From Nannocystales bacterium (lineage in GTDB: Bacteria > Myxococcota_A > Polyangia > Nannocystales > Nannocystaceae), in assembly GCA_050633305.1 (NCBI GenBank), contig JBOEGF010000015.1:32001-96000 (forward strand): DNA of 64,000 nucleotides, read 5' to 3'. The notes beneath the pieces were generated by a model. That model was not told the origin of the DNA. It saw only the letters and a program-made list of their open reading frames with translations, and made no database searches. The translations under genes and the position numbers were made by a program. Within the stretch, counting starts at the first letter, position 1; every line of letters starts with the position of its first letter. This document shows positions 42,523 to 63,247 of this stretch, piece by piece.

Positions 42523-42852
42523 ATGTCGGACTTCGACCTCAACGCGCTGATGCAGCAGGCCCAAGCCATGCAGCAGCAGATGGCGGAAATGCAGAAGAAC
42601 CTCGAGACCGTCGAGGTCACCGGAGCTGCAGGTGGCGGCATGGTCAAGGTCAGAGCCACGGCGGCACAGAAGATCCTCGGCATCGAGATCGACCCCGCGG
42701 TCATGGGCGAAGACAAAGACATGCTGCAGGACTTGATCACTGCGGCGGTCAACAGCGCCCTCGACACGGCCAAGGAAGCGGCGGCCAGCAAGGCATCGTC
42801 CCTGCTGCCTCCGGGCATGACGCCTCCGCCCGGCTTCCCCGGCCTCGGCTAG
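42523..42852 (+). CDS. ybaB: YbaB/EbfC nucleoid-associated protein
   Basis: LMQQAQAMQ, GAAGGGMVKV, MLQDLITAAVNSA; directly upstream of recR. Confidence 0.93.
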   Translation: MSDFDLNALMQQAQAMQQQMAEMQKNLETVEVTGAAGGGMVKVRATAAQKILGIEIDPAVMGEDKDMLQDLITAAVNSALDTAKEAAASKASSLLPPGMTPPPGFPGLG

Positions 42853-42957
42853 CTCGCCGTCCGTGTCTCGTGTCCGCTGCGCCAGGGCTTGCATGCCGTT
42901 GCCTCCTCCTCGACCGCAAGTCCGGAACCAAGCTCCGGGTCACGTTCGGAACACGCT

Positions 42958-43575
42958 GTGAATCCCCACGACCCACCCGCCGATCCTCTGCAGCGACTGT
43001 GTGCGCTGCTCGGCCGCCTGCCTGGCATCGGCGACAAGACAGCGCTTCGACTCGCGCTTGCGATCGTCAAGTCTGACCCCGAGTACGTGCGGGCGCTGTC
43101 CGAGACGCTCGGCACGGTCCACCACACGCTGCAACTGTGCGCCCAGTGTTGCGACCTCACCCCGGACCCGGTGTGTGAACGCTGCTCCGACGGCAAGCGC
43201 GACCGCAGCATCATCTGCGTCGTCGCACAACCCCAAGACCGGATGGCAATCGAGCGGTCGGGCGTTTTTCGCGGCCTCTATCACGTGCTGCACGGCGTGC
43301 TCGACCCGCTCGGCGGCATCGGACCCTCGGACCTCAAAATCGAGCCACTCCTACGGCGGCTCGAACCCAGCGAGGGCCCGGGCGTCGAAGAGCTCATCGT
43401 CGCCACCAGTCCCAACGTGGAGGGGGATGCCACCGCCCTCTACCTCAGCAAGCTCATCGGGCCGCTGGGCGTCAAGGTAAGCCGGATTGCCTCTGGTGTG
43501 GCGGTGGGTGGCGAGCTCGAATATGCGGACGTCACGACGCTGCATCGGGCCCTAGAAGACCGTCGCCGACTGTAG
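42958..43575 (+). CDS. recR: Recombination mediator RecR
   Basis: LPGIGDKTA HhH, C4 zinc finger, YHVLHG, NVEGDATA, GGELEYAD. Confidence 0.96.
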   Translation: MNPHDPPADPLQRLCALLGRLPGIGDKTALRLALAIVKSDPEYVRALSETLGTVHHTLQLCAQCCDLTPDPVCERCSDGKRDRSIICVVAQPQDRMAIERSGVFRGLYHVLHGVLDPLGGIGPSDLKIEPLLRRLEPSEGPGVEELIVATSPNVEGDATALYLSKLIGPLGVKVSRIASGVAVGGELEYADVTTLHRALEDRRRL

Positions 43576-43768
43576 GTGCAAGATTCTTCCGCCTCAACGG
43601 CGGGAAAGATGCTGCCCGACGCTCGAACCGGTCGACTTGCCCCAGTGGTTCTGTTAGCGTCCTCCGACGTCGGGTCATGGCGTTGCTGTGACCCTCCTTC
43701 GCCCCACAGAACTTACGCCCGAGGGTAGCGCCCTCGATGCGATTCTCGAGTAGGAGCCACAACACAAC

Positions 43769-44248
43769 ATGCTCACGCCGCAGCTCGTGATGTACGAGGA
43801 AGAGGTCCGGCAGATCCAGAATGTCGCCGACCGCTTGCAGCAGGACTCCCGGTCCCAAGCCATCCTCGTCGTCGACAAGAACGGACAACTCATCGCGGCC
43901 TCCGGTTCTGCCAGCGAACTGGACACCACTTCACTCAGCTCGCTCGTGGCCGGCAACGTCGCCGCGACCGGGGGCATTGCCCAGCTGATCGAAGAAGAGG
44001 AGTTCACCGGTCAGTTCCACGAGGGCAAGGGAAAGAGCGTTCACATGACGATCGTGGGTCGCAAGATGATCCTCGCCGTCCTCTTCGACAAGTCCACGAC
44101 TCAGGGCTTGGTGAAGTTGCGTGTGAAAAAAGCTTCGATCGAACTCGAGAAGATTCTCGACGAGGTCGACAAAAAGGCCGCCAGCTCGAAGAACGACGTC
44201 TTCTCGGAAATCACCGACGCGGACATCGACAACCTCTTCAACGACTAG
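43769..44248 (+). CDS. mglB: Gliding-motility polarity protein MglB (roadblock, GAP)
   Basis: LVMYEEE, LVVDKNGQLI, LDTTSLSSL.AGNVAATGG, and C-terminal FSEITDADIDNLF. Confidence 0.96.
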   Translation: MLTPQLVMYEEEVRQIQNVADRLQQDSRSQAILVVDKNGQLIAASGSASELDTTSLSSLVAGNVAATGGIAQLIEEEEFTGQFHEGKGKSVHMTIVGRKMILAVLFDKSTTQGLVKLRVKKASIELEKILDEVDKKAASSKNDVFSEITDADIDNLFND

Positions 44249-44272
44249 AACCAGAGGGGGCCCGGGCCGAAA

Positions 44273-44860
44273 ATGTCGTTCATCAACTACAGCTCGCGAG
44301 AGATCAACTGCAAGCTCGTCTACTACGGGCCGGGTCTCTGCGGGAAGACGACCAACCTTCAGTACATCTACAACAAGACCCGCGAGGACGCGAAAGGCAA
44401 GATGATCTCGCTTGCCACCGAGACCGAGCGGACCTTGTTCTTCGACTTCTTGCCGCTTTCGCTCGGCGAGATTCGGGGATTTCGGACGCGCTTCCACCTC
44501 TACACGGTCCCTGGCCAGGTCTTCTACGACGCCAGTCGGAAGCTCATCCTCAAAGGTGTCGATGGTGTTTGTTTCGTCGCCGACTCCCAGCTGGAGCGGA
44601 TGGAAGCCAACATCGAGAGCCTCGAGAACCTTCGAGAGAACCTCACCGAGCAGGGCTACGAACTCGACAAGCTCCCGTACTGCGTCCAGTACAACAAGCG
44701 AGACCTGCCCAGCGCGGTTCCGGTCGAGGAGCTTTCCGAGATGCTCAACCCGACCAAGGTCCCCGAGTACGAGGCGATTGCAACAACCGGCCAGGGTGTC
44801 TTTGACACGCTGAAGGCGCTGGCCAAACAGGTTTTGCAAGAGCTCCGCAAGGGCAGCTGA
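44273..44860 (+). CDS. mglA: Gliding-motility small GTPase MglA
   Basis: MSFINYSSREINCKLVYYGPGLCGKTTNL, TVPGQ, NKRD. Confidence 0.98.
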   Translation: MSFINYSSREINCKLVYYGPGLCGKTTNLQYIYNKTREDAKGKMISLATETERTLFFDFLPLSLGEIRGFRTRFHLYTVPGQVFYDASRKLILKGVDGVCFVADSQLERMEANIESLENLRENLTEQGYELDKLPYCVQYNKRDLPSAVPVEELSEMLNPTKVPEYEAIATTGQGVFDTLKALAKQVLQELRKGS

Positions 44861-46438: not shown

Positions 46439-48508
46439 CTAGTCTTCCCCGAAGAGGTCGTCCCAGCCGTCCGTATCGATCGCCGGCTTGTTCCCGGCAG
46501 AGTCAGCAACAGGAGGCGCGGCCACCTTCGGGGGTGCGACTTTCGGGGGCGTGGGCAACTGAGGCGCCACCGGTTTTGTCGCTCCGTTGCGGGGACCGGT
46601 TTCGCTGCCAAACGCCGGGACCGGCGGAGGCACAAACAGGGGCTGGGAGTCGGACCCGAACAGAGGTTTCTCGGGTGCTGCGGCCTCTTTGGCTTTGGCT
46701 TCGGCGCGCTCCCGGGCTCGTTCGGCGGCCGCTTGGGCGGCTGATTCGGCTTCTGCCTTCGCCCTTTTCTGGGAAGCGGCGTCGTCCTCCTCTGCAGACC
46801 GGGCCAACGTCTCCGCCACGACCCGCGCACGAGCTTCGCGCTCTTCCGCAGCTTTGTCCGCCGCCGCCTTCGCAACCGCCTTCTTCTCAGCTGCTTCCTT
46901 CGCGGCGGCTTCCTTCTCGGCCGCCGCCTTTTCAGCTGCTTCCTTTTCGGCCGCCGCCTTTTCAGCTGCTTCCTTTTCAGCTGCTTCCTTTTCAGCTGCT
47001 TCCTTTTCAGCTGCTTCCTTTTCAGCTGCTTCCTTCTCGGCCGCCGCCTTCTCAGCTGCCGCGGCGGCCTCCTTCTCAGCTGCTTCCTTCTCAGCTGCCG
47101 CGGCGGCCTCCTTCTCAGCTGCTTCCTTCTCAGCTGCCGCGGCGGCCTCCTTCTCAGCTGCGTCCTTCGCAGCGGCTTCTTTCTCGGCCGCGGCCTTCTC
47201 AGCTGCCACGGCGGCTTCCTTCTCAGCTGCGTCCTTGTCGGCAGCTTCCTTCTCAGCTGCCGCCTTCTCAGCTGCCGCCTTCTCGGACGCTTCTTTCTCG
47301 GCTGCTTCTTTCTCGGCTGCTTCCTTCTCGGCTGCTTCCTTCTCGGATGCTTCCTTCTCGGATGCTTCTTTCTCGGCCGCGTCCTTCTCAGCTGCAGCCT
47401 TCTCAGCTGCTTCGGTCGCTACAGCTTCTTTCTCGTCTGCGGCCTGCTCTGCGATTCGTGGGGTGGACGCAGGCTCTTCGGCGACCTGTGCAGACGCGGG
47501 CTCCTCTGCCTTTGCAGCGACAGAAGCCTCCTTCGCCTCACGGGCAGCTTCCTCGCGCCGCTCCTTGCGAGACTTCTTTCCGCCCCGGGCCCTCCGCTTC
47601 TCGCGTCGGTCCTTCCGACGGTCGCGCTTCCCTTTCGCCGGCTTGGCGTCGTTCTCGTTCGAGTCCTTCGACCCGGGCTTTCGCTTGCCCTTTGGGCTCT
47701 TGGACTCGGTAGCTTGTCGAAGCGATCGTCGAGCGCGCTTGTGGAGACCCTTGGCCGTGTCGTCGTCCTCGAAGTCCGACTCATCCATCGCCTCGAGCAA
47801 CGCGGATGCCTGCTCCGTCTCGCCGTCCCGGGCGTACGCAAGGGCGAGAGCGGCGTCGGTCCGCGGCGCAGCGCCGAGCTCTTTGCGTGCCAACTCCAAC
47901 AACTCGACGGCGCGCGACGTCTTGCCAGGTTCCTCGACATAGGCGACCCCGAGGTTGAAAGCATCGAGCGAACGCAACTGTTTCCGCTCCTCCATCCCGA
48001 GCAAGAGTTGGCGCGCCCCTTTTGGATCGCCAGAGAGAACCAACGCGTGGGCCTGCGAGCCAACGAGGTCCGGCTGCTGCGCGTTGCCACTCTGGCGCGC
48101 GGCTTCGGCAAACGCCGCCGCTGCCGCTCGCGGGTCTCCCTTGATGACGTTCAGTCGTCCCTTCTGAGCGGACACCCAGACATGCGGCGCGAAGCGAGAA
48201 ACCATCCATCGCTCCTCGAGTCCCGACATCAACTTGCCCGCTTCGCTTCTCGACGCGCCCGCGAGCGTCTTGCCCAACGCTTCGAGGCGACCGTCCACCC
48301 AAGGAAACAGGCCGAAGAACACGAGGGCCGCAACCGCAACCCCGCCGAGCCGGACCGGCATCATCGGGAACGCCAAACCCAGCAGAACGATCGCACTCGC
48401 GATCGTCCAACGAAGCAGCCGCCCCTGAAACGGTCGCGAACCCCGAGACCAGACCTCGCGGGGTAACTCGACCAATGAAGCATCGTTCCCGCGCGCCAAC
48501 GCACCCAT
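46439..48508 (-). CDS. Membrane protein with a TPR-like region and a long TolA-like AEKEA helix
   Basis: N-terminal TM hairpin, TPR-like helices, a basic patch, an (AAEKE)n repeat, and an acidic tail GWDDLFGED. Confidence 0.75.
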   Translation of the reverse strand: MGALARGNDASLVELPREVWSRGSRPFQGRLLRWTIASAIVLLGLAFPMMPVRLGGVAVAALVFFGLFPWVDGRLEALGKTLAGASRSEAGKLMSGLEERWMVSRFAPHVWVSAQKGRLNVIKGDPRAAAAAFAEAARQSGNAQQPDLVGSQAHALVLSGDPKGARQLLLGMEERKQLRSLDAFNLGVAYVEEPGKTSRAVELLELARKELGAAPRTDAALALAYARDGETEQASALLEAMDESDFEDDDTAKGLHKRARRSLRQATESKSPKGKRKPGSKDSNENDAKPAKGKRDRRKDRREKRRARGGKKSRKERREEAAREAKEASVAAKAEEPASAQVAEEPASTPRIAEQAADEKEAVATEAAEKAAAEKDAAEKEASEKEASEKEAAEKEAAEKEAAEKEASEKAAAEKAAAEKEAADKDAAEKEAAVAAEKAAAEKEAAAKDAAEKEAAAAAEKEAAEKEAAAAAEKEAAEKEAAAAAEKAAAEKEAAEKEAAEKEAAEKEAAEKEAAEKAAAEKEAAEKAAAEKEAAAKEAAEKKAVAKAAADKAAEEREARARVVAETLARSAEEDDAASQKRAKAEAESAAQAAAERARERAEAKAKEAAAPEKPLFGSDSQPLFVPPPVPAFGSETGPRNGATKPVAPQLPTPPKVAPPKVAAPPVADSAGNKPAIDTDGWDDLFGED
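46860..47420 (-). repeat. Intragenic ~15-bp degenerate tandem repeat (AAEKE/AAEKA)
   Basis: TTCTCAGCTGCTTCC-type units repeated about 30 times, in frame. Confidence 0.85.
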
Positions 48509-48836: not shown

Positions 48837-49961
48837 ATGCTGACCGTGGTGTCCAAGCCCGCAATCGACCTCGCGCAACTCGTGGGCCGCCGAGAACAGT
48901 TCGCCTACGAGCAGCATCTGGCGCGTTCGACCTACGCCTACGGTGTCGACCTCCGACGCGCCGCATGGCTGGACTCCAGCCGACTCGGCGATCCGCTCAT
49001 GCGTACGGTCGATCGCCGCTGGAATAGTCTGACCACCAACCTCTCGGCGGACGCGTTGCAGCCGGGAGGGACCACCCTGTCGTCAAGGGTCATGGACCAA
49101 CTGCTTGGTCTGGTGCGTCTGCTTCACGCACCGTGGCCGTCGATTAGGGTGCTTCAGCCCGGGGTCGCCGAACGCTGGCCAATCGTGACACCGCTGGGAA
49201 CGACAAAAGGTGGCTCGCATTGGATCATCGTCGACAAAGAACGGCTCGAAGCCCTCAGCGAATCCGAGCGTGCGTTCTTGCTGGGCTCGGCGATCTCGCA
49301 CCTTCAGTGCGACCACGGTCCGCTCTTCACAGCCCACCTCATGGCCCACCGGTCCGGACGAGGCGAAGGCCTTGTCCGCACGCTGCTTCGACCGTGGTCC
49401 CGCGTCTGCGTATTCTCTGCCGACAGGGCGGGACTCCTCGCCGTCGATGAACTGGACCTGGCCCGGGCGTCGCTTCGCGCCCACGCCGACCCTGGCGTCC
49501 CATGGCTTCCGCCGATGCCGGACGTTGCGGAGCGCCTGCGCGCACTCGAAGAGTTCTCCAAGTCGCGTGTTCTCGCGCGCCTCCGCCTCAGCGGCCCCCA
49601 CACCCGATGGAGTCTCGCGCCTCGCCTCGCGCAGCCGGTCGAGGCATCCGCAGATGCGGACCCGGGCAAGACCCCGCCGCAGGCCGACAGCGGGCCCGGA
49701 GCTGCGGCTCCAGCTCAGCCTCCCGAGCCTTCCGCGCCGGCCGAGCCTGAGCCCGAGACCTCCGCTGCAGAGTCCGACTCCGTCGCCGAGGCCGAGGCCG
49801 ACGGCGAGCGACTCGCCGAAGCCCAGGCCGCCGCTGACGAAGCGCGCGAGGCCATGGAAGACGAGCTCGCACAGGCCAAAGCCAAAGACCGGGTCCTCGC
49901 CGAAGCTTGGCCCCTTGCCCGTTGCGACCAACGCCTGACCCGAAGGCTGGGACTGCTGTGA
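48837..49961 (+). CDS. M48 peptidase-like protein lacking zinc ligands (pseudopeptidase)
   Basis: LSESERAFLLGSAISHLQCDH and WSRVCVFSADRAGLL align to M48 ELxFxLGHELxH and WSRxxExSADRAGL, but H, E and E are replaced. Confidence 0.65.
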   Translation: MLTVVSKPAIDLAQLVGRREQFAYEQHLARSTYAYGVDLRRAAWLDSSRLGDPLMRTVDRRWNSLTTNLSADALQPGGTTLSSRVMDQLLGLVRLLHAPWPSIRVLQPGVAERWPIVTPLGTTKGGSHWIIVDKERLEALSESERAFLLGSAISHLQCDHGPLFTAHLMAHRSGRGEGLVRTLLRPWSRVCVFSADRAGLLAVDELDLARASLRAHADPGVPWLPPMPDVAERLRALEEFSKSRVLARLRLSGPHTRWSLAPRLAQPVEASADADPGKTPPQADSGPGAAAPAQPPEPSAPAEPEPETSAAESDSVAEAEADGERLAEAQAAADEAREAMEDELAQAKAKDRVLAEAWPLARCDQRLTRRLGLL

Positions 49962-51766
49962 ACACCTCCGAAGCCCTCACCGAACACGCGACCCGACTTC
50001 AGGCGATCGCCACCGAACTCGGCCTTTCCGACCTAGGCGAGACCATCGTCGAGGACACCGAGCGGCGCCTCTGCGACTCCCGCATTCGCGCGGTGGTGCT
50101 CGGAGAGATCAAGCAAGGCAAGAGCACGCTGATCAACGCGTTGTTGGGGCAAGACGTCCTGCCGACCGGCGTCACTCCCACCACTGGCGCGACCGTGGTC
50201 GTTCGCGAGGGGGATAGCCCCGGCCCCTACCTCCGCCGGGAGGACGACAGCCGGACCGAGCTCGAGCCCGAGCGCTTCAACCGACTCGCCAAGGGTCCAC
50301 TGACCAAGGACGCCGAGGTCGACGACGCGGACGCAGGCACGCTCGAGTACGAGATTGAATCGGGGACTCTGCCCGCCGCGCTGGAGCTGGTGGACACCCC
50401 CGGCATCAACGACATCGCGAAGTTCCGTGCGTCGGTGAGCCGCGGCGAGCTGCCCCGAGCGGACATCCTCATCCTGGCACTCGACGCGACCCAGCTTCTC
50501 AACCGCACCGAGATGGCATTCCTCCGCGATGCCGTCACCGCGGTCGGCGGGCTCGGGGACTCCGGCGCCACGTTGCTCCTCGCCGTCAACCGAATCGATC
50601 TCATCGCCGAACGCGAACGCCCTCGGCTCGTCGAATACATCGAGGACGAGCTCGCGTCGCTGAGCAGCGGCGACAAGAAGCCGTACGAGCTGTTCCTGAC
50701 CGACGCACGGACCGGGTGTCGCGACCCAGACGCGGAAACACCTGGCGCTCAAGGGGTCAAGGACCTTCGCGCGCGGCTGCACGAGCTGGCTGCTCACCGC
50801 GCTCAGGTCCTTCCGCTGCGGGCCCGCGCTGGCCTGGTGCGGCACGCCTCGCTGCTGGGCCACAACGCCTCCGTCGCGGCGCGGGCGCTCACGCTCGAGG
50901 CGAAAGCCCTTCGCCGCGAGGTTGAGCGTTTTGAAGACGACCTCAACAAGTACGGCAACGACATGACAGGCGTGCGCAACACCCTGTCCGCCCTGCGCGA
51001 AGAAGTCCTCGAGGCCAGTGCGGAGCGCCAGGCCGAGTTCCGCGCCGAGCTCGAGAGCTCCACCAAGGAAGCCCTTCGAACGATTTCGATGCGGCACCTC
51101 ACCGGTCCGTTCGCCGGAGCGTTGCACGATGCGTATCTGCAGTTCGCAAGCCGGGAGGCGGACGCTCTACGAAGTGCGCTCGACGAGATGACCCGCAAGG
51201 CCATCCTTGCCCAGTCAGAGCAAGCCCGCAGGCGGCTCTATCACGCGACTCTTCGCCTCGGCTTCCGCGGCCCAACGATCTACGTCGACCCGCCCAGCGC
51301 TGTCCTCGAAGCCAGCCTCGTCGCGGTCGGTGTCGCAGGGACCGCCATCATGTATCTGGGCAGCGCCATGACGGGCCTGGTCATGGCCATCGCCGGTCCG
51401 CTCACCACGCTCGTCCTGCGGGAGAAGGGACTCCGAGACGCGCGTGCGCGTGCCCTCGAGGAGTTGCCGAAGGCTCTTCAGACCGCCGACGATGCCTTTC
51501 GGGGACAGGTTCGCAGCACGGTCGACAAGCACATCGCCGCCCTGGACGAGCACCTCCAACTCGCCAACGTCGCGTTGGGCGATCAGCTTCGCGGTGTTCT
51601 CCATAAGGCGCAGGCCCGACTCGATGCGATCGAGAAGGGCTCCCCCGAGCCCAAGGACGAAAGCGAAGACCCAACCGCTCCCGAGCGCGCCAAGGCGTTG
51701 TCTCAGCTGCACGAACTCGAGCGCGAGATCGGCAGCATCCGCGGCCAGCTCGACGCTATCCGTTGA
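49958..51766 (+). CDS. Bacterial dynamin-like protein (mitofusin-type)
   Basis: G1 GEIKQGKST, G2 LPTGVTPTT, G3 DTPG, G4 NRID, a helical stalk and a hydrophobic paddle hairpin; GTGA overlap with the upstream gene. Confidence 0.9.
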   Translation: MNTSEALTEHATRLQAIATELGLSDLGETIVEDTERRLCDSRIRAVVLGEIKQGKSTLINALLGQDVLPTGVTPTTGATVVVREGDSPGPYLRREDDSRTELEPERFNRLAKGPLTKDAEVDDADAGTLEYEIESGTLPAALELVDTPGINDIAKFRASVSRGELPRADILILALDATQLLNRTEMAFLRDAVTAVGGLGDSGATLLLAVNRIDLIAERERPRLVEYIEDELASLSSGDKKPYELFLTDARTGCRDPDAETPGAQGVKDLRARLHELAAHRAQVLPLRARAGLVRHASLLGHNASVAARALTLEAKALRREVERFEDDLNKYGNDMTGVRNTLSALREEVLEASAERQAEFRAELESSTKEALRTISMRHLTGPFAGALHDAYLQFASREADALRSALDEMTRKAILAQSEQARRRLYHATLRLGFRGPTIYVDPPSAVLEASLVAVGVAGTAIMYLGSAMTGLVMAIAGPLTTLVLREKGLRDARARALEELPKALQTADDAFRGQVRSTVDKHIAALDEHLQLANVALGDQLRGVLHKAQARLDAIEKGSPEPKDESEDPTAPERAKALSQLHELEREIGSIRGQLDAIR

Positions 51767-51845
51767 TCCTCAGCGCTGCGACCACGCGCAGAGGAGCCCA
51801 GCAGCGCCGCGGGCTGGGACATCCTCAGCCTGCTAAGCTCGTCGG

Positions 51846-53993
51846 GTGAGCGACGGCGAAACCTCCCTGCTCCACCGAGCGCGAGAGGTTCTGGCCTCGC
51901 TTCGGGAGCCGCGACCCGACGATGCGTCTCCGTCTGTGCCCGAGGCCGTGGCGCGCCAGGTCGCCGAATCATTGGCGCGTTGGCAAGGGAGTGCATCGGT
52001 CCGTCGTTTCCTTGGTGTCCCCGCCGGACACGATCGAATCGGTGCGGCGGGTGAGCCCGTGTGGCTGGAAGCGCGAGTCGGGCCCGTCGTGCAGCGGGGA
52101 GCCGCCGCGGTCCGGTTCGTGCTCGACGGCCAGCCTCTGGGGACCTCCGGCCTGAGCGAATCCGGGGGCGGGGGTGTCGACGTTCGGGTTCTCGAGCCTG
52201 GTGTTCACTCGGTCCAACTCGAACCGTTGACTGCAACCGGGGCCAGCCTCGGGCCTCCCGGTGTCGCGGGCGAGGTCAGGGTCCATATCGTGTCGACCGG
52301 GCCCGTGGTGGGAGTCGACGCCGAAATGGTGCTCGAGTCTGACCCGGAGTCCATCGACACGATCAGGCGGCTCGCTGTCGAGGGCGTTCAGGTCTTCTAC
52401 TTCGACTTGGACCCCACCGATCGAGCGGTCGCGATCCGGGCAGCGGTCGTCGGTCTTGGACTCCCCGATGGTGCCGTCCTCACGCACCCAGAAGCGGAGG
52501 AGGATATCGAGCCTGGCAACACGGACTTCAGTCGGGTCTTCGGTCTCACGACCGTCCGGCGCCTCCGGGCCAACGGGGTTCCCGTCGTCGCAGGGCTACG
52601 GGCCCAAACCAGCCCTCCTGCGGCTCCCTCAGTTCCGGTTTTCCGCCCTGACGAAGTCACGGCAGAGGTCATCGTCCGACTGCACCAAGACGCGCAGGCC
52701 TTTGAGGAGCGGAAAGTCCGGACCGACCCGCTCACCTGGCGGCTCGACGAAGCGACGAACACCCGACTGGTCGCCGGGAACTCGGTCGCCGCCGAGTTCG
52801 ACAACCGATTGGCGAGAGAGAGGCTGTTCGAGCTGGTAGAGGGCGCCGAACGATCGATCCATCTGCAGACTTACATCTTCAACGAAGGGCAGGTTGCCAA
52901 CGCCTTGGTCGTGCGACTCGTCCAACAAGCCCGCGCGGGCGTGGCCGTCCGGGTGATCGTGGACGCGCTGTATTCGGGCGAACAAGTTCTCGGCCGGAAG
53001 AACCCCCTCCTCGAATCCCTGTCTCTCGAGGACAACGTCGAGGTCGTTGTCGGGTCACCGATCGGTTTTGGGAGGTCTCTCGACAGTGTCACGTTGAAGC
53101 AACGGGACCACCGAAAGCTACTCATCGTCGACGGCCAGACAGGGTTCGTGACCGGCCGCAACATCTCGGACGCGTACTACCGCGGCTTTGACGAGACCCC
53201 GATTCACCACCACACCACCCACGAACACATCCCGTGGCTCGATGCGCACGTCGAGGCGACAGGCCCCGTCGTCGATGCACTGGAGGCGACGTTCACTGAG
53301 GCTTGGCTCAGCTACGGCGGCACCGAGCACCAGGATCTCACACCATGCGCATCTGCGTCGACGGGGTCCTGCGCTGCCCGGCTCGTCGTGCACAACGGCC
53401 TCGTCGATGCCAACGGCATGCTGCAGTACGAGGCGATGCTCGACGGAGCGCGCGACCACGTCTACATCGTCAACGACTTCCCCATCGTGCCCTCTCTCGC
53501 CTCCGCGATGCAACGCGCACTCGCACGAGGCGTGCGTCTGGTCCTTCTCACAGGCAACGCCGTCGCTCGCAGGGCGGACGGCTCCTTCTTTCCAGGCCCG
53601 GTCTACCGAGAGCTGTTCGACCACATGGTCAAGCAGCGCCTCGAGCCTCTGATTCGCAGCGGCGCACAGGTCTTCGAATACGTCGTGCCGCCCGAGCCCA
53701 TGATCGTTCCACAAGGCGGCGTGGTTCGGCCCTACGTGCACGCGAAGGTCATGTCCTGTGATGGCCGCGCGGCAAGCATTGGCTCCGCCAACCTCGACGC
53801 GACGGCGAGCTACTGGGAACACGAAGCCAACCTCGTGGTCCAAGACGAGGGATTCACCAACGATCTCGAGCAACAGATCGAGTCGATGATCACACGGGCT
53901 CACGCCATCGACCTCGACTCGGACTATTGGAAGCGGGATCGTGCGAAGCGAGCGATCGTCGCCAAACTCTGGCCCGCCGTAGTCTACTCGTAG
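51846..53993 (+). CDS. Phospholipase D/cardiolipin synthase-family protein with an extended N-terminal region
   Basis: Two HKD motifs (HRKLLIVD..GRN and HAKVMSCD..GSANLD) after a ~290-aa N-terminal extension without TM helices. Confidence 0.88.
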   Translation: MSDGETSLLHRAREVLASLREPRPDDASPSVPEAVARQVAESLARWQGSASVRRFLGVPAGHDRIGAAGEPVWLEARVGPVVQRGAAAVRFVLDGQPLGTSGLSESGGGGVDVRVLEPGVHSVQLEPLTATGASLGPPGVAGEVRVHIVSTGPVVGVDAEMVLESDPESIDTIRRLAVEGVQVFYFDLDPTDRAVAIRAAVVGLGLPDGAVLTHPEAEEDIEPGNTDFSRVFGLTTVRRLRANGVPVVAGLRAQTSPPAAPSVPVFRPDEVTAEVIVRLHQDAQAFEERKVRTDPLTWRLDEATNTRLVAGNSVAAEFDNRLARERLFELVEGAERSIHLQTYIFNEGQVANALVVRLVQQARAGVAVRVIVDALYSGEQVLGRKNPLLESLSLEDNVEVVVGSPIGFGRSLDSVTLKQRDHRKLLIVDGQTGFVTGRNISDAYYRGFDETPIHHHTTHEHIPWLDAHVEATGPVVDALEATFTEAWLSYGGTEHQDLTPCASASTGSCAARLVVHNGLVDANGMLQYEAMLDGARDHVYIVNDFPIVPSLASAMQRALARGVRLVLLTGNAVARRADGSFFPGPVYRELFDHMVKQRLEPLIRSGAQVFEYVVPPEPMIVPQGGVVRPYVHAKVMSCDGRAASIGSANLDATASYWEHEANLVVQDEGFTNDLEQQIESMITRAHAIDLDSDYWKRDRAKRAIVAKLWPAVVYS

Positions 53994-54056: not shown

Positions 54057-54458
54057 ATGCGCCTCTGTTGTTGTGTCGCTGCGCAGGTCTTGTTTGCACC
54101 CGCGCTCGGGCACGCACACGAGGGTCACGAGAAAGAGACGTCCGACCCCGAGCAGCGTCGTGCCCGTCGCGGTGGGCTCGGCGACATGCAACTCGGGACA
54201 CCCATCGGACCGGTCGGTGACGTGCAGACATCCCTCAGACCCGCGTCCGCCCTCGGCGGTCAGGCCAGCAGCCGTGGCTTTGGCTACACAATCGGTGGAG
54301 GGGGGCGCGCCCTCGTGCTCGGTCGCCTCGTGCTCGGCGGCCGTGGGTTCGGCGTGTACTCGGCTCACATCGGTAGTGAGCGGGGCTTTGCGAAGATCAC
54401 CGGCGGCGGGGGATGGCCCGCGCCCGGCTCAGCGGTGGTTTTCTGCGCCTCACCCTAG
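54057..54458 (+). pseudogene. Exported Gly-rich beta-strand protein, apparently truncated
   Basis: Signal peptide, then Gly/aromatic beta strands (IGGGGRALVLGRLVLGGRGFG) that end abruptly after GGGG. Confidence 0.35.
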
Positions 54459-54520
54459 GTGGCGGAGGATTCTGGTTCGACTGAGGTGATCGAAAGTTGC
54501 CGTGCTGGCACTGACCAAGC

Positions 54521-55270
54521 ATGGCTTTCCTGCTCGCGGCTTCGGTAACAATGGCCCTTGCCGTCCCGCCACCGTCCCCACCGACGAGCGAGGGCCCGCG
54601 GCGCAAGACCGCGGAACCGCAGCTGGGGCAGGACTCGGCCCGGGGCTTTGTTGTCGCAGGAGCGGTCCTCACAGGCCTCAGTACCTGGTCGTCCGGGATG
54701 ATCGCGTCGCGATACCTCGACTCTCGCAACGCGACCCAACAGGCCAGGGGTCGCGTTCTCCCGATTCCGTTCGCCGGTCCGATCGTGGCGGCGGCCATGG
54801 GAACTCGCACGCAGCAGCCGATCGCGGCGCTCGGCGTGATCCAGGGCGCGGGCCTCAGTTTTCTGACGATCGGCGCCGTCTCGCTTGCCCGCCACCGCCG
54901 GCTCGGCCACCGCCGAGGCCCGTTGATCTTCAACAAGGCGACCGGTGTTCTCGCCCTGACCCAAGGGGTCATGTGGTTGTCCGTGTCCTGGGGGATGACG
55001 TTCGGGTTTTCCCGTACCCGAGCCAAATCGGGGGATGCGTTCGCCCGCCGACTGCAAGTACCGATCATCGGCGGCTTGTGGGCAGCCCCGATCGCACCAA
55101 GCTACACCCGCGGATACCTCGGACTCACGAGCAGCGCGATTCAGATCGCGTCGGCGGCGGGCGTGGTTTTTGGTGCCGTCATGCTTCGCAAACACCACAA
55201 GAACAGGCTCTCGGTGATGCCCATGCCGACACCGGAGGGTCCCCGTCTCGTCGCCTCGATGCGGTTCTAG
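54521..55270 (+). CDS. Hypothetical membrane protein with internal duplication
   Basis: Signal peptide, two repeats of (L/V)PI..G..(V/W)AA, and C-terminal ...PTPEGPRLVASMRF. Confidence 0.7.
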   Translation: MAFLLAASVTMALAVPPPSPPTSEGPRRKTAEPQLGQDSARGFVVAGAVLTGLSTWSSGMIASRYLDSRNATQQARGRVLPIPFAGPIVAAAMGTRTQQPIAALGVIQGAGLSFLTIGAVSLARHRRLGHRRGPLIFNKATGVLALTQGVMWLSVSWGMTFGFSRTRAKSGDAFARRLQVPIIGGLWAAPIAPSYTRGYLGLTSSAIQIASAAGVVFGAVMLRKHHKNRLSVMPMPTPEGPRLVASMRF

Positions 55271-55280
55271 GGACGCCCCC
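55268..55280 (+). repeat. 13-bp direct repeat TAGGGACGCCCCC (copy 1)
   Basis: Identical to 56204-56216; a related inverted copy lies at 46426-46442. Confidence 0.6.
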
Positions 55281-55302
55281 CAGGGTCCATGGGAGCCCAG
55301 GA

Positions 55303-55974
55303 TCAGAAGCTCGCGCTGAACTCGAAGAACACCGCGCCGCCGGTCCTCGTGTTGTACCGAGCCCCTGCGTTGAAGTTGCCGCCCAGTGCCTGCCCGCTCT
55401 GCCCGATCGAGAAGTTCGTCGAGTTGTTCCCCGTGTTGTGACTGACACCCGCATTGAACCGCCCCATGTCGGTCCGCTGGCTGTATCGGGCGGAGAAGTT
55501 CGAGTCGCCCGTATCGAACGCGTTCTCGAACTGGATGCGCAACGTCCCCGGGCCGCGTTGTAGCTTGTAGTCAGCCTCGAACTCCTCGAGGCTCACCCCG
55601 AGCTTGAGCTTGCCGGGCAGACGGACTTTGTCGATGGGGACGGTGAGGGGGACCTTCGCCCGGCGGAGCGCGTCCTGAATCTTCGGCTCGATCTCATCCC
55701 AATTCATGACCCCGTACACCACGGTAGCGGCCGCCCCAGCCAGGATGATGACGGACCGTCCCTCCGGGGTCATCGAAGTGCAGAACTGCTGAACCTCGGC
55801 TGAGAACGCTTGGCCGGCCTGGTTGGCTTGGGTTGAGCTCACCCCCTGCTCTCGCAGCAGGTCTGCGACGAGACCGCGGGTTTGGGAGTCGACCTTCCTG
55901 CAGAGCTTGGGGTCGCCCACGATGTCCATCACCTGCTGATAGATCTCCGTTCCAGTACGCCTCGGATCTGCCAC
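55303..55974 (-). CDS. Hypothetical protein with C-terminal amphipathic beta strands ending in Phe
   Basis: Helical N-terminus, a hydrophobic segment, then repeated F[NS]AG[VA].[YH]N strands; ends FFEFSASF. Start uncertain. Confidence 0.6.
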   Translation of the reverse strand: MADPRRTGTEIYQQVMDIVGDPKLCRKVDSQTRGLVADLLREQGVSSTQANQAGQAFSAEVQQFCTSMTPEGRSVIILAGAAATVVYGVMNWDEIEPKIQDALRRAKVPLTVPIDKVRLPGKLKLGVSLEEFEADYKLQRGPGTLRIQFENAFDTGDSNFSARYSQRTDMGRFNAGVSHNTGNNSTNFSIGQSGQALGGNFNAGARYNTRTGGAVFFEFSASF

Positions 55975-56203
55975 CCAATTGTCGTACAGGAATGTCAGCC
56001 CCCTGTCCAAGCGACAGGTTTTCGGGGCGCCGACGGCAGGCCACACCACCAACCGAGGGGACGTCGTGCAGGGCAGAGGCGGCGCCGCCGCCAGCGGGAG
56101 GGTGCGCCTGTACGAGGGCCCCTTGCGTGATCCATGCGTGCTCGGCCGACGAGGAGCGACGCAATGCCGTTCCGGGGCGATGTTGTACAGGCGACCTGCA
56201 TCT

Positions 56204-56216
56204 TAGGGACGCCCCC
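56204..56216 (+). repeat. 13-bp direct repeat TAGGGACGCCCCC (copy 2)
   Basis: Identical to 55268-55280 and followed by TAG. Confidence 0.6.
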
Positions 56217-56409
56217 TAGAGTGAACCGCTGACCCGCCGACCACGTCACCCGAAGTGCGAGCAGCGTGTTCCTCCGAGCGACCGCGAACCTCGCCGTCCC
56301 GCGTCAGACTCACCGGAGCGACCTGACGCCGCGGGGTTCATCGGTGTCCGCCCCGGTCCGTGAGCGCTCGAACTCCGCTGGCCTGGCGCCGCTGCCCCAC
56401 GGCGGTGAG

Positions 56410-57669
56410 TCACGCGTGGCGCGGGAGCTCGGCCGGCCAGAGGTTGCCCAGTGGGTGGTCGGAAACCCCGGACCCATAGACGACGTCAATGCTCCGAGTG
56501 TTGCGACGGATGAAACCGGCGGCTTCGAGGGACTGAACCACGCAGCTCGAAGCGGTGAGTCCCGGCTCGGCGCTGGGTCCCTCGCCCGACCGACCCACTG
56601 GGCGAAAGACCTCGGTGTACAGCTTGGGAAAGGCTTCTCGGAAGCAGGCGAGGTGATGCTCGTTGATCCAGTAGCTCTCCTTTCCACCGGAAACGTACGC
56701 GCCCATCTGGGCCCGCGTCGCAAACTCTCGACGGCGCAGACCCATCCCGACGACCCGGTCGACCCCCGACGAGTCGGCGTGCGTCGAGAGCTTCATGCGA
56801 GCGTACGCTTCCGCCATGTCGCGGTCGGACGCAACGCCCGAGGCAAGCGGCCTCAGCGTGCTGCCGAAGCGCTTGAGAAACCCGTGGGCGAGGCTGAGCG
56901 AGACAGCGGCGGCCGCTCCGTCAGCCGCACCTCTGGCCATCACCTGTTCATTGTGCTTTCCGGGCATCGGAAGGTACGTGGCCCGGGTCGATCCTCCCAC
57001 AAGCATCCGAGACATGTCCTGCGGCTTGAAGGTCTCGCGACGTTCGTTCTTGGATAGGATCGCGCAGTAGTAGTTCACCGAAGACGGAACCCGACGCATG
57101 TCCATCTTGGTAAGGCCCAGCCCTTTTCCCGCGACCGGGTCGACCGCGAAGATGTTCATGCGGATCGAGCCGCCGAAGACTTCGTGAATTGCATTGGCAA
57201 TACGGATGCACGTGACCCCACCGCGACTCCACCCGACCATGTTCACCGTATGGATGGGAATCCGGTATTCGAACTTGAGCATCTGGAGGATGAACACCGT
57301 CCGGGCGATGTTGTCCCCCATTCCCTTGCCGGATAGTTTTCCCCGCATGGCCGTATGGTGGGCACCGCTTTGACCGGCGAAGTGTTCCGCGAAGGATGTA
57401 CGCCAGAATCCGCTCCGACCGTACTGGACCTGCTCATCCTTCTTGAGGCGCCCCGTGAACGGGTTTGTGTCCGTGGGCAACGGCAGGCCATCGGACTCGC
57501 TCCCCGGTCCTTCATTGATGACGTAGCAACCTCTTTGAAGAGTCCCGTTTCGTATCACAGCCTCCTGGCCCGACATCAGGTCATGAAGCGTCCCCACCAG
57601 CTCGCCGCGCGCACGGGAGTCCTCTCGGTTGAACCCCGTTCCATGGTTGAAAATCGTGAACACCGTCAT
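56410..57669 (-). CDS. Tle1/DUF2235-like alpha/beta hydrolase (putative lipase effector)
   Basis: FTIFNHGT start, EGPGS, G.G..DN, nucleophile elbow GWSRG, FAVDPV (Asp), PGKH (His); AAGGAG RBS; no signal peptide. Confidence 0.7.
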   Translation of the reverse strand: MTVFTIFNHGTGFNREDSRARGELVGTLHDLMSGQEAVIRNGTLQRGCYVINEGPGSESDGLPLPTDTNPFTGRLKKDEQVQYGRSGFWRTSFAEHFAGQSGAHHTAMRGKLSGKGMGDNIARTVFILQMLKFEYRIPIHTVNMVGWSRGGVTCIRIANAIHEVFGGSIRMNIFAVDPVAGKGLGLTKMDMRRVPSSVNYYCAILSKNERRETFKPQDMSRMLVGGSTRATYLPMPGKHNEQVMARGAADGAAAAVSLSLAHGFLKRFGSTLRPLASGVASDRDMAEAYARMKLSTHADSSGVDRVVGMGLRRREFATRAQMGAYVSGGKESYWINEHHLACFREAFPKLYTEVFRPVGRSGEGPSAEPGLTASSCVVQSLEAAGFIRRNTRSIDVVYGSGVSDHPLGNLWPAELPRHA

Positions 57670-57975
57670 CCGTCAAGCTCTCCTTCAAAGCCTCGCCAAC
57701 GTTCGGGGCCCGGCTGAACGGCTCGGCGGACCTTCCAGCAGACACCACGGTTAACCATGGCTCGGTCCTGTTGAATCCTTCAGCTGCGAGCGCCTAATGT
57801 GCTCTCGCGATGCATCAATTCTCCGCAGCCGGCACGTGAAATCGAGATGAAAGCGAGAGCATCTGATTCTCGTGATGGAACCGCGTATATCCGGCCATCA
57901 CGTTCGTCGGTATTGCAATAGCTTCACCTCCCGGCTTACGGAGTAGCGGCGCACGGTGCCACCTGTGACTCGAGC

Positions 57976-59829
57976 TCAGCCCCCGAAGACCACGCCCCAG
58001 GCAGCCTTCACCATCAGACCGAGCTCCAGTTGTGAACGTTCGTCCCGAGGGACTCGTTCTCCGGAGAGGTACGTGTCCACGACCTCGATCTCGTTCCACT
58101 GTCTTGCCGGGACATCGTACGGGCTCGCCGAGAGCACCGTGAAGTCGGCCCGCTTGCCAACGGAGATGCTCCCCACCGAGGCCTCCGCGAAGATTTGCCA
58201 CGCGGCGTCGATCGTGACGGCTCGCAAGGCATCGTCGACGCTGATCCGTTCGTCTGGCCCAAGCACTCTCCCAGAACGTGTTGCTCGGGTCACCGCAGTC
58301 GAAAGAGCTCGGAACACGCCCAGTGGCGACGACGGCGTGTCGGTATGGATCGACGCACGGTGGCCCTCCTCGATCGCCGAGCCGATCGGCATGAACCTCG
58401 CAGCCCTTTGTGAGCCCACGATGTGGTCGTGTAGCGCGTCGCCGTAGTAACCCACATGATCCATGTAGAAGCTGACCGTGACCCCGAGCATCCGCGCACG
58501 ACGAAGTTGGGACCTCGTGATCAGCGCGTTGTGTTCCATTCGGTGCCGATGGTCGGTGCGTGGGAATGAACGCTGCGCGGCGTCGACGGCTCCGAGGAAC
58601 TGGTCGACGGCCCGCTCCCCCTGGGTGTGGGCTGCGACTTGCCACCCGGCACGGTGGTAGCGCTCGACGAGTCCCGCGAGTTCAGCGTCCGTGAAATGCA
58701 GCTCTCCGCGCGAACCCGAGGGGATTCCCAGGACGTCACGATTGAAGGGCCCGTCCACGTAGGACTCCTCCATCGCCATTCCCCCCGCGTACGGTGACCC
58801 GTCAACCCAGAGCTTCGGGCCGAGGACACGAAAACGTTCGTTTCCCTGCCCCGGGAGGAAGCTAGATTCGGCAAGCCGGTCGTGCAGCGGGTACGTGACG
58901 ACGCGAACCGGTGCCGCCCCGTCTTCGGCAGTGACTTGGGCGACGGCCAGATGATGCGGGATGGAAGGCTGCAACCCCGGAGCACACACGGTCGTGTACC
59001 CCGCCTGCGCGTACGCCCTCCATTGCTGGGCGAGCAACATCGCGTAGGCAGCGGTCGGATACTTGGGGACCGCCTCGCGAAGCTTGGCCATCGCCCCGAC
59101 CTCCTTGATCCCCCCGGTGAGCTCACCGTCCTCGTCTCGCTCGAAGTACCCACCCGCCGGGTCGGGACTGTCGCGAGTGATACCCGCAGCCGAGAACGCG
59201 GCCGAGTTGGCGTGTGCGGAGTGTAGTGTTTGCGCGATGATCAGCAGCGGGTTGTTCGGTGCAATCGCATCGAGTTCCGCCAACGTCGGAGGGGAGAGGT
59301 CGGGCACGAGTGCGGGGTCCCAGCCGTACGCAATGACCCACTCGCCGCCACCCGCCTGAGCGACCCCACGGTCGATGACCTCCATGACCTCGGCGCGTGT
59401 GCTGTGGTGAAACCCCGAGATGTCGAGGGTCTGACTCATCATGGCCGACAAAATCGGGTGGCTGTGAGCATCGATCAGCCCAGGAAGAAGGACGGCATCG
59501 CCGAGTTCGACAACCCGGGTCGCGGTCCCCTTGTATGCGAGCACCTCTTCTCGTGACCCGACCACGTGGATTCGTCCATCTCTGACCGCGACCGCTTCGG
59601 CCCTCGGACGTAACTCGTCGACCGTGATGATCTGCCCGAGCACAATGAGATCAGCCCGGTTCGGCTCTTCCTCGAGCGAGGGAACGGAACGCCCCAGGCT
59701 GGCGATCGTTCCCAACAGAGCGACCACGACGAGCGCGAGCGCGATGAACAGCAAGGTACGCCTACGAATGCGAGGCCGGCCGACACCACCCCGGGCCGGC
59801 GAACGCGAGGGGGTCTTCTTTGCGGTCAT
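57976..59829 (-). CDS. Amidohydrolase 3 (YtcJ-like) family protein with N-terminal TM anchor
   Basis: LPGLIDAHSH, KLWVDGS, AHTQGE, RHRMEH, HTDTP, GSISVGKRADF. Confidence 0.9.
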   Translation of the reverse strand: MTAKKTPSRSPARGGVGRPRIRRRTLLFIALALVVVALLGTIASLGRSVPSLEEEPNRADLIVLGQIITVDELRPRAEAVAVRDGRIHVVGSREEVLAYKGTATRVVELGDAVLLPGLIDAHSHPILSAMMSQTLDISGFHHSTRAEVMEVIDRGVAQAGGGEWVIAYGWDPALVPDLSPPTLAELDAIAPNNPLLIIAQTLHSAHANSAAFSAAGITRDSPDPAGGYFERDEDGELTGGIKEVGAMAKLREAVPKYPTAAYAMLLAQQWRAYAQAGYTTVCAPGLQPSIPHHLAVAQVTAEDGAAPVRVVTYPLHDRLAESSFLPGQGNERFRVLGPKLWVDGSPYAGGMAMEESYVDGPFNRDVLGIPSGSRGELHFTDAELAGLVERYHRAGWQVAAHTQGERAVDQFLGAVDAAQRSFPRTDHRHRMEHNALITRSQLRRARMLGVTVSFYMDHVGYYGDALHDHIVGSQRAARFMPIGSAIEEGHRASIHTDTPSSPLGVFRALSTAVTRATRSGRVLGPDERISVDDALRAVTIDAAWQIFAEASVGSISVGKRADFTVLSASPYDVPARQWNEIEVVDTYLSGERVPRDERSQLELGLMVKAAWGVVFGG

Positions 59830-60089
59830 GCGGTTCGTTTTCGGTGGGACCGCCGGCGCGAGGTCGCGGCGGGTCAGGCCTCGAAGCCTACCGCGCTCCC
59901 GAGGCAACGGGTTGGAACCCACGGGGCCTTGACGCTCGAGGTGTCCCGACACGAGCGACCGAACAGTCCACTCAATACAAGCCCTCGAAACGCAGCCTAG
60001 ACAGTAGCGGTTGTGCGTGAGCACAGGGCCGAGCGCCTGGCTCGGAGATTGACACGAGGCGTAGCGGAACGGCGGGAACAACAGCGAGG

Positions 60090-60692
60090 CTAGAGATGAA
60101 GGCGGTCGCGGAGACTGCAGACCCAGTCATCGAACGAGTCGACCGCGCGACCACGTACGGACACGTCCGCTTCCACGCTGTCCCTCAGCTTGGCCTTGGC
60201 ACTGCGTAGTCGGGTGCGCACCGTTCCCTCGGGAAGGTCCAAGGCTTCCGCCAACTCAGGGCCCGTCAAGCCATCCCAGTAGTGCATCTGAAGCAGGAGT
60301 TGGTCCGCCAGCGGAATGGTGCGTAGCGCGAGAAGCAGCCGACGTTCTGCGTCCCGGTGGGCGATCACCGAGGTTGCAGAGGCGCCCAGCGCTTCGAGAC
60401 TCATCGCGCCGACGTCGACCTCCCGCGGGCGTCGCGATCGCGTGCGCCAATACATCAGCACCTTGTTTCGAGCGATGCCCATCAAATAGGCGCCAAAGCT
60501 CGCGTCCGCCCGGAACCGTGCACGCCCCTCGAGCGCTGCGACCAGGGTTTCCTGGACCAAATCCTCTGCCGCACCCGGAGCCGAGAGCTCGAAGAAACGA
60601 AACAGACGATCGAAGTGCCGGGTGAGGAGAGCTTGAGCCGCCCGTTCGTCCCCCAGGTCCCACGCCTCGAGCAACTCCTTCTCGGTGGGCAC
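60090..60692 (-). CDS. ECF RNA polymerase sigma factor
   Basis: ELLEAW..GD, AEDLVQET, YLMGIARN, LPEGTVRTRL. Confidence 0.9.
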   Translation of the reverse strand: MPTEKELLEAWDLGDERAAQALLTRHFDRLFRFFELSAPGAAEDLVQETLVAALEGRARFRADASFGAYLMGIARNKVLMYWRTRSRRPREVDVGAMSLEALGASATSVIAHRDAERRLLLALRTIPLADQLLLQMHYWDGLTGPELAEALDLPEGTVRTRLRSAKAKLRDSVEADVSVRGRAVDSFDDWVCSLRDRLHL

Positions 60693-60751
60693 GGACGCAA
60701 CATACACTCCGGTCACGTGCGTGCCCCTGCGGGTGCGCGCCACTGTCTCCC

Positions 60752-61648
60752 GTGAGCAGCCTTTCCGAAGCAGCCGCGTCTGTGCCCGTGTTCGTCCCGG
60801 TCGAAAAGGCTCGGGTCCGCGCGAATCTGCAAGCGCGGCTTGCTGGCCGAGATCCTGCCCCCACCACCGTCGGTCGTTACACACTGCGAGCCCGTATTGG
60901 CCAGGGGGCACACGGGGTGGTCTACCGGGCCCATGATCCCAAGCTCGATCGGGAGGTCGCACTCAAGCTCGTGCTCTCGCCAGAATCGGACCATGCCGTC
61001 CTCGCGGAAGCGCACGCCCTCGCCAAGCTGACCCACCCGAACGTGGTCGCGGTGTACGACGTCGGCGCGTTGGATCACGCCGTGTACATCGCGATGGAGT
61101 GGGTTCGAGGCATGACCCTTAGGGACTGGTTCGAGTGCGAGCCACGGAGTGAAAGAGAAACAATCCGCGTGATGCTCGATGCTGGAAGGGGACTTCACGC
61201 CGCCCATGTCGCCGGACTCGTGCACCAGGACTTCAAGCCCCACAACGTCATGGTCGGAGACGACGGCAGGGTCAGAATCCTGGACTTCGGGTTGGCCCAG
61301 CCGGCCTCCGCCGCAGGGAGCCCCGTGGCGGGCACGCCCGACTACATGGCCCCCGAACAACGGCGGGGCGTCACACCGAACGCACTCTGCGACCAGTACA
61401 GCTTCTGCGTCACGTTTCACGAGGCACTCACCCGCAGACGCCCGGCGGCTGGCCGACTTGCGCGGGTCTGGCTCGCGCTCGCCAAACCGATCCTCGCCCG
61501 TGGGCTGCGGGAGGACCCCCAAGAGCGCCACACCTCGATCGCGACCCTGATCCAGCGGTTCGAGAGGCGCCGAATTCTCGCCCTTGCGGCCGCTCTCGTG
61601 GTGGCGGGGAGCTTGGGAGCCTTGCTCATGCGGGCTCTCCTGGGCTGA
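60752..61648 (+). CDS. Short Ser/Thr protein kinase with C-terminal TM
   Basis: IGQGAHG, VALK, HQDFKPHN, DFG, GTPDYMAPE; ends in one hydrophobic helix. Start uncertain. Confidence 0.85.
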   Translation: MSSLSEAAASVPVFVPVEKARVRANLQARLAGRDPAPTTVGRYTLRARIGQGAHGVVYRAHDPKLDREVALKLVLSPESDHAVLAEAHALAKLTHPNVVAVYDVGALDHAVYIAMEWVRGMTLRDWFECEPRSERETIRVMLDAGRGLHAAHVAGLVHQDFKPHNVMVGDDGRVRILDFGLAQPASAAGSPVAGTPDYMAPEQRRGVTPNALCDQYSFCVTFHEALTRRRPAAGRLARVWLALAKPILARGLREDPQERHTSIATLIQRFERRRILALAAALVVAGSLGALLMRALLG

Positions 61649-62660: not shown

Positions 62661-63142
62661 AACCTGCCACCTACGGACATGCCAGCACCTTCTGGGGAGA
62701 TGTGAGATCGGAAGGACAGAGCGTGCCGACGCTGTACGAGGCGGCGGCGTGCCGCGTCGCCCACGACCGTCAGGGCGACCCCGGAGGCGAGCATGCCAAC
62801 GGGGACGTAGAACCCGAACGCACGAAATATGGCACGCTCCCTCTTTTCGATGCCACGCTCTTTCTTGGAAGGGGGTTCGTCCGTGAAGTCGGTGGGATGC
62901 ATCGAGTCGATGGCCCTGAACACGCCCACCGCGGCCGAGATCGACAGCCAAGTGCCGCCGACGCTCAGACTCACCAGGCCGGGAACCAACAACTTCGCCT
63001 GGCGCCGGTCTCGACGGTACGCAGTGCTCGCAGCCGGGACGGCCACGGACGGCGCCGTGCGTGGCGGGATCAACTCGGGCGGCCCGGGCGGCGTGGCGAG
63101 GGCTGAAAGCAGGGTCGGGCCGACTAAGATCGAGGGAGTCAT
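62657..63142 (-). CDS. Hypothetical membrane protein
   Basis: Signal-like N-terminus, two Gly-rich hydrophobic helices, C-terminal SPEGAGMSVGGRF. Confidence 0.65.
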   Translation of the reverse strand: MTPSILVGPTLLSALATPPGPPELIPPRTAPSVAVPAASTAYRRDRRQAKLLVPGLVSLSVGGTWLSISAAVGVFRAIDSMHPTDFTDEPPSKKERGIEKRERAIFRAFGFYVPVGMLASGVALTVVGDAARRRLVQRRHALSFRSHISPEGAGMSVGGRF

Positions 63143-63247
63143 CACGCTCTGACCCTTCGTTGCCGTCGCCAGAGAATCGATTGCCACTGGATGCGGGTTT
63201 TCTGTGGACCCGCGGAACCCCGCGGGCTGCTACGTTGCCGAGCGCGG

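Follow-up and report, generated by a model that had tools for sequence, protein, structure and literature searches.

The stretch of DNA analyzed here (the window, 64,000 nucleotides of contig JBOEGF010000015.1 from a Nannocystales bacterium that its kin place in the Nannocystaceae) carries three + strand genes that encode, in order, an M48-fold protein, a bacterial dynamin-like protein (DLP-A), and a two-HKD enzyme of the phospholipase D (PLD) superfamily. The open reading frames (ORFs) confirmed the arrangement given in a preliminary description of this DNA: the genes are co-oriented, the GTG start of DLP-A overlaps the TGA of the upstream M48 gene by 4 bp (GTGA), and the PLD gene follows DLP-A after a gap of 79 nt. 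All three are under purifying selection, with dN/dS values of 0.06-0.19 against three congeners. The preliminary description had read them as a conserved system, and had missed a second dynamin gene, DLP-B, which starts near the right end of the window and runs beyond it. When related loci were compared, the three genes were not conserved together; the conserved third gene was instead DLP-B, a dynamin with a TPR solenoid. In the explanation that we favor with moderate confidence, M48, DLP-A and DLP-B work together as a housekeeping machine for tethering or resealing the cytoplasmic membrane, and the PLD gene is likely a later insertion.

Conservation of the M48 and dynamin genes

Conservation was counted over 134 distinct DLP-A loci, obtained by de-duplication on DNA with 9 duplicates dropped; L062-L071, which had been fetched around DLP-B or non-orthologous GTPases, were left out of the counts. 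Of the 124 distinct loci whose upstream DNA was long enough to judge, 119 have an M48 gene immediately before DLP-A. An independent set of myxobacteria-type metagenome loci gave 39 of 41, and the two misses there had less than 300 bp of upstream sequence. One of the five loci scored as lacking an adjacent M48 gene (L094) is a frameshifted assembly that has it. The apparent M48-DLP fusion at this locus was not counted, nor was a similar one at L313, which has no G1 or G2 motif and looks like a deletion or misassembly.

The usual gene order in relatives is M48, DLP-A, DLP-B, rnhB. In 23 of 30 Nannocystaceae tree rows, DLP-B and DLP-A lie no more than ∼2 kb apart, the adjacency expected of the two genes of a heterotypic bacterial dynamin pair. 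Among the remaining rows, 4 contain an insert (all from the window’s genus), one has no DLP-B within 4 kb, and two could not be judged; in the window genome itself, the two dynamin genes are split by an insert of 11.4 kb. The two genes also co-occur though unlinked, as was seen in 27 of the 28 genomes of one order. The RNase HII-like gene that follows DLP-B was considered as a fourth member of the unit, but it is the genome’s only RNase HII match, with its DEAGRG motif intact, and was therefore set aside as a housekeeping neighbor.

DLP-A is a single-copy gene found in 70 of 72 family genomes, and its tree, built with FastTree, groups by family. Full-length orthologues are widespread in the window’s class and in the Bradymonadia-type class (28/28 genomes in one order), and a match of any kind was obtained in 97 of the 251 genomes of the phylum sample. 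A further 31 genomes, from another class, yielded no orthologue, and no full-length DLP-A was found among the 13 genomes of family f46. Judged by MglB, none of the three genomes sampled from f46 and f67 is a close relative of M. xanthus, and the matches listed (80 loci; 120 hits) name no isolate of Myxococcus or Corallococcus. Cultured genera that carry the module include Nannocystis, Plesiocystis, Enhygromyxa, Labilithrix, and Bradymonas.

Dynamins of other types are also found with an M48 gene. Among 37 distant metagenome loci this holds for 3 (L247, with 25% GC, L290, and L300), all of which combine an intact M48 gene with a DLP pair. At L247 (4010-9553), a TIR-domain gene stands directly before M48, DLP, DLP, and a defence context is possible in that lineage. 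The link also occurs, in a second architecture, at two loci of family f42 (L203:5193-10327 and L205:5677-10001), which hold a dead M48 gene and a degenerate dynamin-like gene, followed by a dynamin of the type found in bacterial dynamin-like proteins (BDLP); a Lysinibacillus plasmid (L241, NZ_CP106864.1) has three tandem dynamin genes near fexA, with no M48 gene annotated in the stretch examined; and the three f46 TPR-dynamins examined (L210, L211, L214) have decayed G motifs.

Table 1. Positions of the module, the insert and neighboring genes in the window.
Feature	Length	Position	Strand	Remarks
ybaB, recR, mglB, mglA (presumed from translations)		42530..44860		4 kb upstream of the module
Divergent gene		46439..48500	-	head-to-head with the M48 gene in most family loci
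Soluble M48-fold pseudo-peptidase	374 aa	48837..49961	+	conserved neighbor of DLP-A
DLP-A, bacterial dynamin-like GTPase	602 aa	49958..51766	+	G1-G4, hydrophobic paddle
Two-HKD PLD-superfamily enzyme	715 aa	51846..53993	+	first gene of the lineage-specific insert
Rest of the variable insert between both dynamin genes		54057..63187	both	nine ORFs
DLP-B, TPR-solenoid dynamin, 5' part	1017 aa	63248..64000	+	continues to G000:C15:98301 past the window

The M48-fold protein and the two dynamins

The window M48 protein matches Pfam Peptidase_M48 (PF01435) at E 0.003 with 17.8 bits, under the curated cut-off of 20.3, and its orthologues reach 57-96 bits on the same model. The family profile matches HtpX (3cqb) at 4.6e-10, placing the family in the M48 fold. 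In the window protein, HExxH is replaced by SAISH (residues 151-155), and the position of the third zinc ligand is occupied by Val192, so it has neither the HExxH motif nor the downstream Glu ligand of an active M48 zinc peptidase; a low-complexity insert is present at about residues 262-350. Its hydrophobicity (KD19) reaches a maximum of 0.99, and KD19 exceeds 1.8 in only 5 of 113 M48 rows, indicating soluble proteins that do not have the membrane helix of OMA1 or HtpX.

The M48 active site (a HECGH-type motif plus Glu) is intact in 81 of 125 loci. Glu152 is replaced in every one of the 30 Nannocystaceae-type rows, and 79 of the 83 other rows retain it. The eight dead rows outside Nannocystaceae occupy some five positions in the tree, so the gene seems to have lost catalysis more than once and yet been kept. 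The dead window protein continues to be under purifying selection (dN/dS 0.10-0.16 against congeners). The preliminary description had proposed the dead peptidase as an adaptor or sensor, and a protein that is dead yet conserved fits the role of adaptor. No relatives of the window protein were found in viral contigs, where the confirmation query was the divergent window protein itself. We also observed that Cys158 is near-invariant in the dead Nannocystaceae proteins (29/30), compared with Asn in 83 of 83 others, that it sits beside the retained His155 and His160, and that Cys363 is often gained too; the gained cysteines could form a new metal site or a disulfide.

DLP-A matches Dynamin_N (PF00350) at E 2.8e-21 with 76.7 bits (cut-off 27), and carries G1 (GEIKQGKS), G2 (PTGVTPTT), G3 (DTPG), and G4 (NRID, in which Arg replaces Lys). 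A hydrophobic stretch predicted at about residues 447-490 has a family-mean KD19 of 1.97 at residue 454, and values above 1.8 occur in 103 of 113 DLP-A rows versus 3 of 56 DLP-B rows, as expected if only the former have a paddle. The closest solved relatives of DLP-A are IniA (5.6e-13) and Nostoc BDLP (9.5e-13), and then MFN2 (6.5e-6). The intact motifs and the paddle that had been ascribed to this protein are thus borne out, but the term mitofusin-like applies only loosely, since IniA and BDLP rank above MFN2. Nostoc BDLP1 (2j68/2j69) and Mycobacterium IniA (6j72) share with DLP-A the G domain, helical trunk, and hydrophobic paddle (E ∼1e-12), although the alignment covers only the N-terminal half; the excerpts of PMC9950537 and PMC6104087 mention neither an M48 nor a TPR partner for them (papers given by PMC number are represented here by excerpts unless their main text is mentioned).

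DLP-B has intact G1-G4 motifs and no hydrophobic paddle. Its structure model (pLDDT 88) predicts a helical-repeat solenoid at residues 32-504, followed by the G domain and a helical trunk; strong TPR matches are found in DLP-B orthologues, and the model’s best fold matches are to BDLP, IniA, and Cj-DLP. Bacterial DLPs mostly function as heterotypic, membrane-tethering pairs, and the extra N-terminal domain of a DLP can mediate assembly (PMC6104087). The Campylobacter jejuni pair DLP1/DLP2 (PDB 5owv/5oxf; PMC6104087) resembles the window’s pair in having two adjacent DLP genes within an operon, an extra N-terminal domain on one of the two proteins, and matches in both sequence and fold. It differs in that the extra domain is a 119-aa assembly domain, whereas that of DLP-B is a TPR solenoid of ∼470 residues, and in that the window module has a paddle-less DLP-B and an operon led by an M48 gene; the word “peptidase” is absent from the main text of PMC6104087. 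Two more tandem GTPase-like ORFs were observed at G000:C6:9676-13000, with weak N-terminal Dynamin_N matches and no Pfam match for the whole proteins.

The gene group had been compared with mitochondrial systems in which an M48 peptidase, cardiolipin, or MitoPLD acts on a dynamin. MitoPLD is a single-HKD protein, unlike the window PLD, which has two HKD motifs and is not co-conserved with the dynamin. OMA1 is likewise an M48-family protein associated with a dynamin, OPA1, but it is membrane-bound (PMC2806285) and active, whereas the window M48 protein is soluble and, in Nannocystaceae, dead. The parallel is therefore weaker than was proposed, with the pairing of M48 and dynamin as the part that holds, and the window module is an analogy to OMA1-OPA1 only, not a homologue. 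Soluble M48 peptidases are represented by PGM48 and sll1280 (PMC12223511), which share the M48 family with the window protein, itself perhaps of the PGM48 type; the cyanobacterial lipid-droplet proteome contains sll1280 together with the FZO-like dynamin sll0804, and the excerpts of that paper draw no link between the two.

The PLD gene and the variable insert

The PLD enzyme has two HKD motifs (HRKLLIVD at 422 and HAKVMSCD at 632) and matches PLDc_2 at E 2.8e-27. Of its earlier designation as a two-HKD PLD/cardiolipin synthase, the first half was confirmed; its NCBIfam Cls scores of 101 and 90 bits are far under the cut-offs of 290 and 281, and it does not have N-terminal membrane helices, so it resembles ClsA and ClsB in the two motifs and differs from them in these respects. 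The structure model (pLDDT 88) predicts an N-terminal module of Ig-like plus HAD type at residues 55-280, which aligns with the C-terminal domain of Nir2 bound to phosphatidic acid (9jtz; Z 14.2, rmsd 3.8, 208 aligned) and with lipin (6tzz; Z 13.0, rmsd 3.9, 212 aligned). The DxDxT motif of an active lipin/LNS2 phosphatase is missing in 49 of 50 PLD homologues (1/50 matches DxDx[TV]). None of these 50 homologues has a Pfam LNS2 or App1 match, the lipin likeness being visible through fold search alone, and an ESM Atlas search with the PLD N-terminus returned unnamed clusters only, at 0.77. Taken from the model, the N-terminus is predicted to be a dead lipin/Nir2-LNS2 fold, and the protein is likely a phosphatidic-acid-sensing phospholipid enzyme with a job of its own, in which a lipid-sensing module would sit on a phospholipid-converting enzyme. 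The subfamily also has longer relatives, of 850-900 aa.

At a match threshold of E <= 1e-60, the PLD subfamily was detected in 35 of the 72 family genomes, and 35 of the 70 family genomes that carry DLP-A gave no match. The PLD gene adjoins DLP-A only in the close congeners G000, G001, and G002, and in the other 32 PLD genomes the two are on different contigs; in congener G006, for example, a 71% identical PLD is located on another contig among unrelated genes. PLD stands beside DLP-A in 3 of 117 distinct loci with at least 1.5 kb downstream (searched with a profile from two sequences) and in 0 of 79 metagenome dynamin loci (searched with a 50-sequence profile, over limited flanks). The survey of gene neighborhoods thus upheld the M48-dynamin part of the supposed triad, and PLD was rejected as a conserved member.

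The remaining nine ORFs of the insert encode an amidohydrolase, an ECF sigma factor, a Ser/Thr kinase, a GH88 protein, and five products without a Pfam match. Insert size varies among congeners, from ten ORFs over 11.4 kb in the window genome to three ORFs in G002, and in G003, G005, and G006 the same slot holds different genes and no PLD. These comparisons of gene content suggest that PLD is likely a passenger, inserted later and not part of the conserved unit. As a passenger it is probably co-transcribed with DLP-A, and a weak scan revealed no terminator-like site between the two co-oriented genes.

Outside the insert, the cluster upstream of the module contains genes that we take from their translations to be ybaB, recR, mglB, and mglA, and the MglB homologues match PDB MglB. 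The product of the divergent gene between this cluster and the module has an N-terminal hydrophobic pair, a TPR-like part, and a long EKAAAE-type repeat.

Proposed function and alternatives

In the proposed membrane-resealing machine, DLP-A would bind the membrane by its paddle, and the paddle-less DLP-B would pair with it as a soluble partner, as in other heterotypic bacterial dynamin pairs, with the helical-repeat region of DLP-B (∼470 residues) perhaps serving as a scaffold for assembly or for recruitment and targeting. The M48 protein would bind DLP-A. In most lineages it may be a zinc protease that trims DLP-A or proteins at the damaged site, and in the window’s lineage it may be a non-catalytic holder or adaptor. 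A more specific version of this idea, which we put forward tentatively, is that a dedicated M48 protein controls a dynamin subfamily by direct binding, through cleavage in most lineages and through catalysis-free capture after repeated conversion to a pseudo-protease, and that the TPR-dynamin is the targeting scaffold of a three-protein membrane-remodeling machine.

Several points weigh against a resealing machine of this kind. The repair role, proposed by analogy, is borrowed from other DLPs, and the support for putative binding of M48 to DLP-A and of DLP-A to DLP-B consists of gene linkage and anatomy. After manual check, L134, L170, L171, and L183 have no adjacent M48 gene, and in genomes of the Polyangiaceae and Bradymonadia types the two dynamin genes are not linked. 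Nor is M48 a partner of dynamins in general, because 34 of the 37 more distant dynamin loci have no M48 gene in the flanking DNA covered, and the M48-dynamin pair was found in none of the five plasmid regions checked. The kin compared are, moreover, not independent of each other, and the counts therefore stand for fewer separate observations than they suggest.

Since bacterial DLPs function in repair, division, and delay of phage lysis (PMC9950537), other roles for the module were considered. One that we regard as unlikely is an anti-phage system that stabilizes the membrane and delays lysis, like DynA or Leo, with the M48 protein sensing or cutting phage proteins. B. subtilis DynA does delay phage lysis (PMC9950537), PADLOC returned matches to LeoA (E 1e-11) and LeoBC (8e-9), and L247 has its TIR-domain gene directly upstream; however, both of these PADLOC matches score low (43 and 33 bits), and the genes are under strong purifying selection. 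In addition, DLP-A is single copy, its tree groups by family, and the module is set among housekeeping genes (recR, mglBA, rnhB, fpg, ksgA, and tsaD) and not in a variable defence island, and for these reasons a routine function is preferred over a mobile defence system. Protection from phage would still be compatible with the resealing machine, as a side benefit of membrane repair. The near-universal retention of the module in the family would equally fit a constitutive role in cell division or septal fusion, like that of Streptomyces DynAB, which stabilize FtsZ rings (PMC9950537), or in membrane traffic for gliding or polarity, instead of damage repair, and mglBA is found 4 kb upstream in the window and in many family members. 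We consider these roles quite improbable, because the mglBA linkage is family-level synteny that does not extend to the loci of other families, the 31 genomes of another class and family f46 yielded no orthologue, and knocking out the DLP pair of C. jejuni caused no division defect (PMC6104087).

The reading that seems least probable to us is the one in which PLD supplies the dynamin with locally made cardiolipin or phosphatidic acid, either in a dedicated three-part system or as a recent recruit in the genus. Besides the co-orientation, the 79-nt gap, and the absence of a visible terminator-like site, this reading is supported by the PLD-DLP-A adjacency, which has been kept in G000, G001, and G002 over a dS of about 1, and by the fact that in G001 PLD lies between DLP-A and DLP-B with gaps of 71, 80, and 6 bp, across a contig break, making co-transcription likely; the modeled resemblance of the PLD N-terminus to a phosphatidic-acid-binding domain may also be counted in its favor. 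However, neighboring insert genes have been retained just as long, the slot is filled by different genes in other congeners, adjacency is confined to 3 of 35 PLD-bearing family genomes, and half of the genomes with DLP-A gave no PLD match. These results remove a tempting lipid-synthesis triad and leave the PLD, with its predicted dead lipin-type module for binding phosphatidic acid, as a separate candidate architecture; a PLD fused to a pseudo-lipin/LNS2 module was not found in print.

Heterotypic dynamin pairs are already known in bacteria, and what is new here is the module of an M48 gene with a dynamin pair. In the open-access literature covered, we found no description of an M48-dynamin operon or of a TPR-dynamin, and no publication in which bacterial dynamins have a TPR-fused subunit or are partnered by a protease, active or dead; the word “dynamin” is absent from the main text of PMC7159879 and PMC11237479. 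The module bears on the open question of what activates a bacterial dynamin or directs it to membrane damage. Because nature has placed active and dead versions of M48 beside the same dynamin, in cultured genera, the choice between cleavage and binding is directly testable. If the proposed control of a dynamin through M48 cleavage is true, it would be a prokaryotic counterpart of the control of OPA1 by OMA1.

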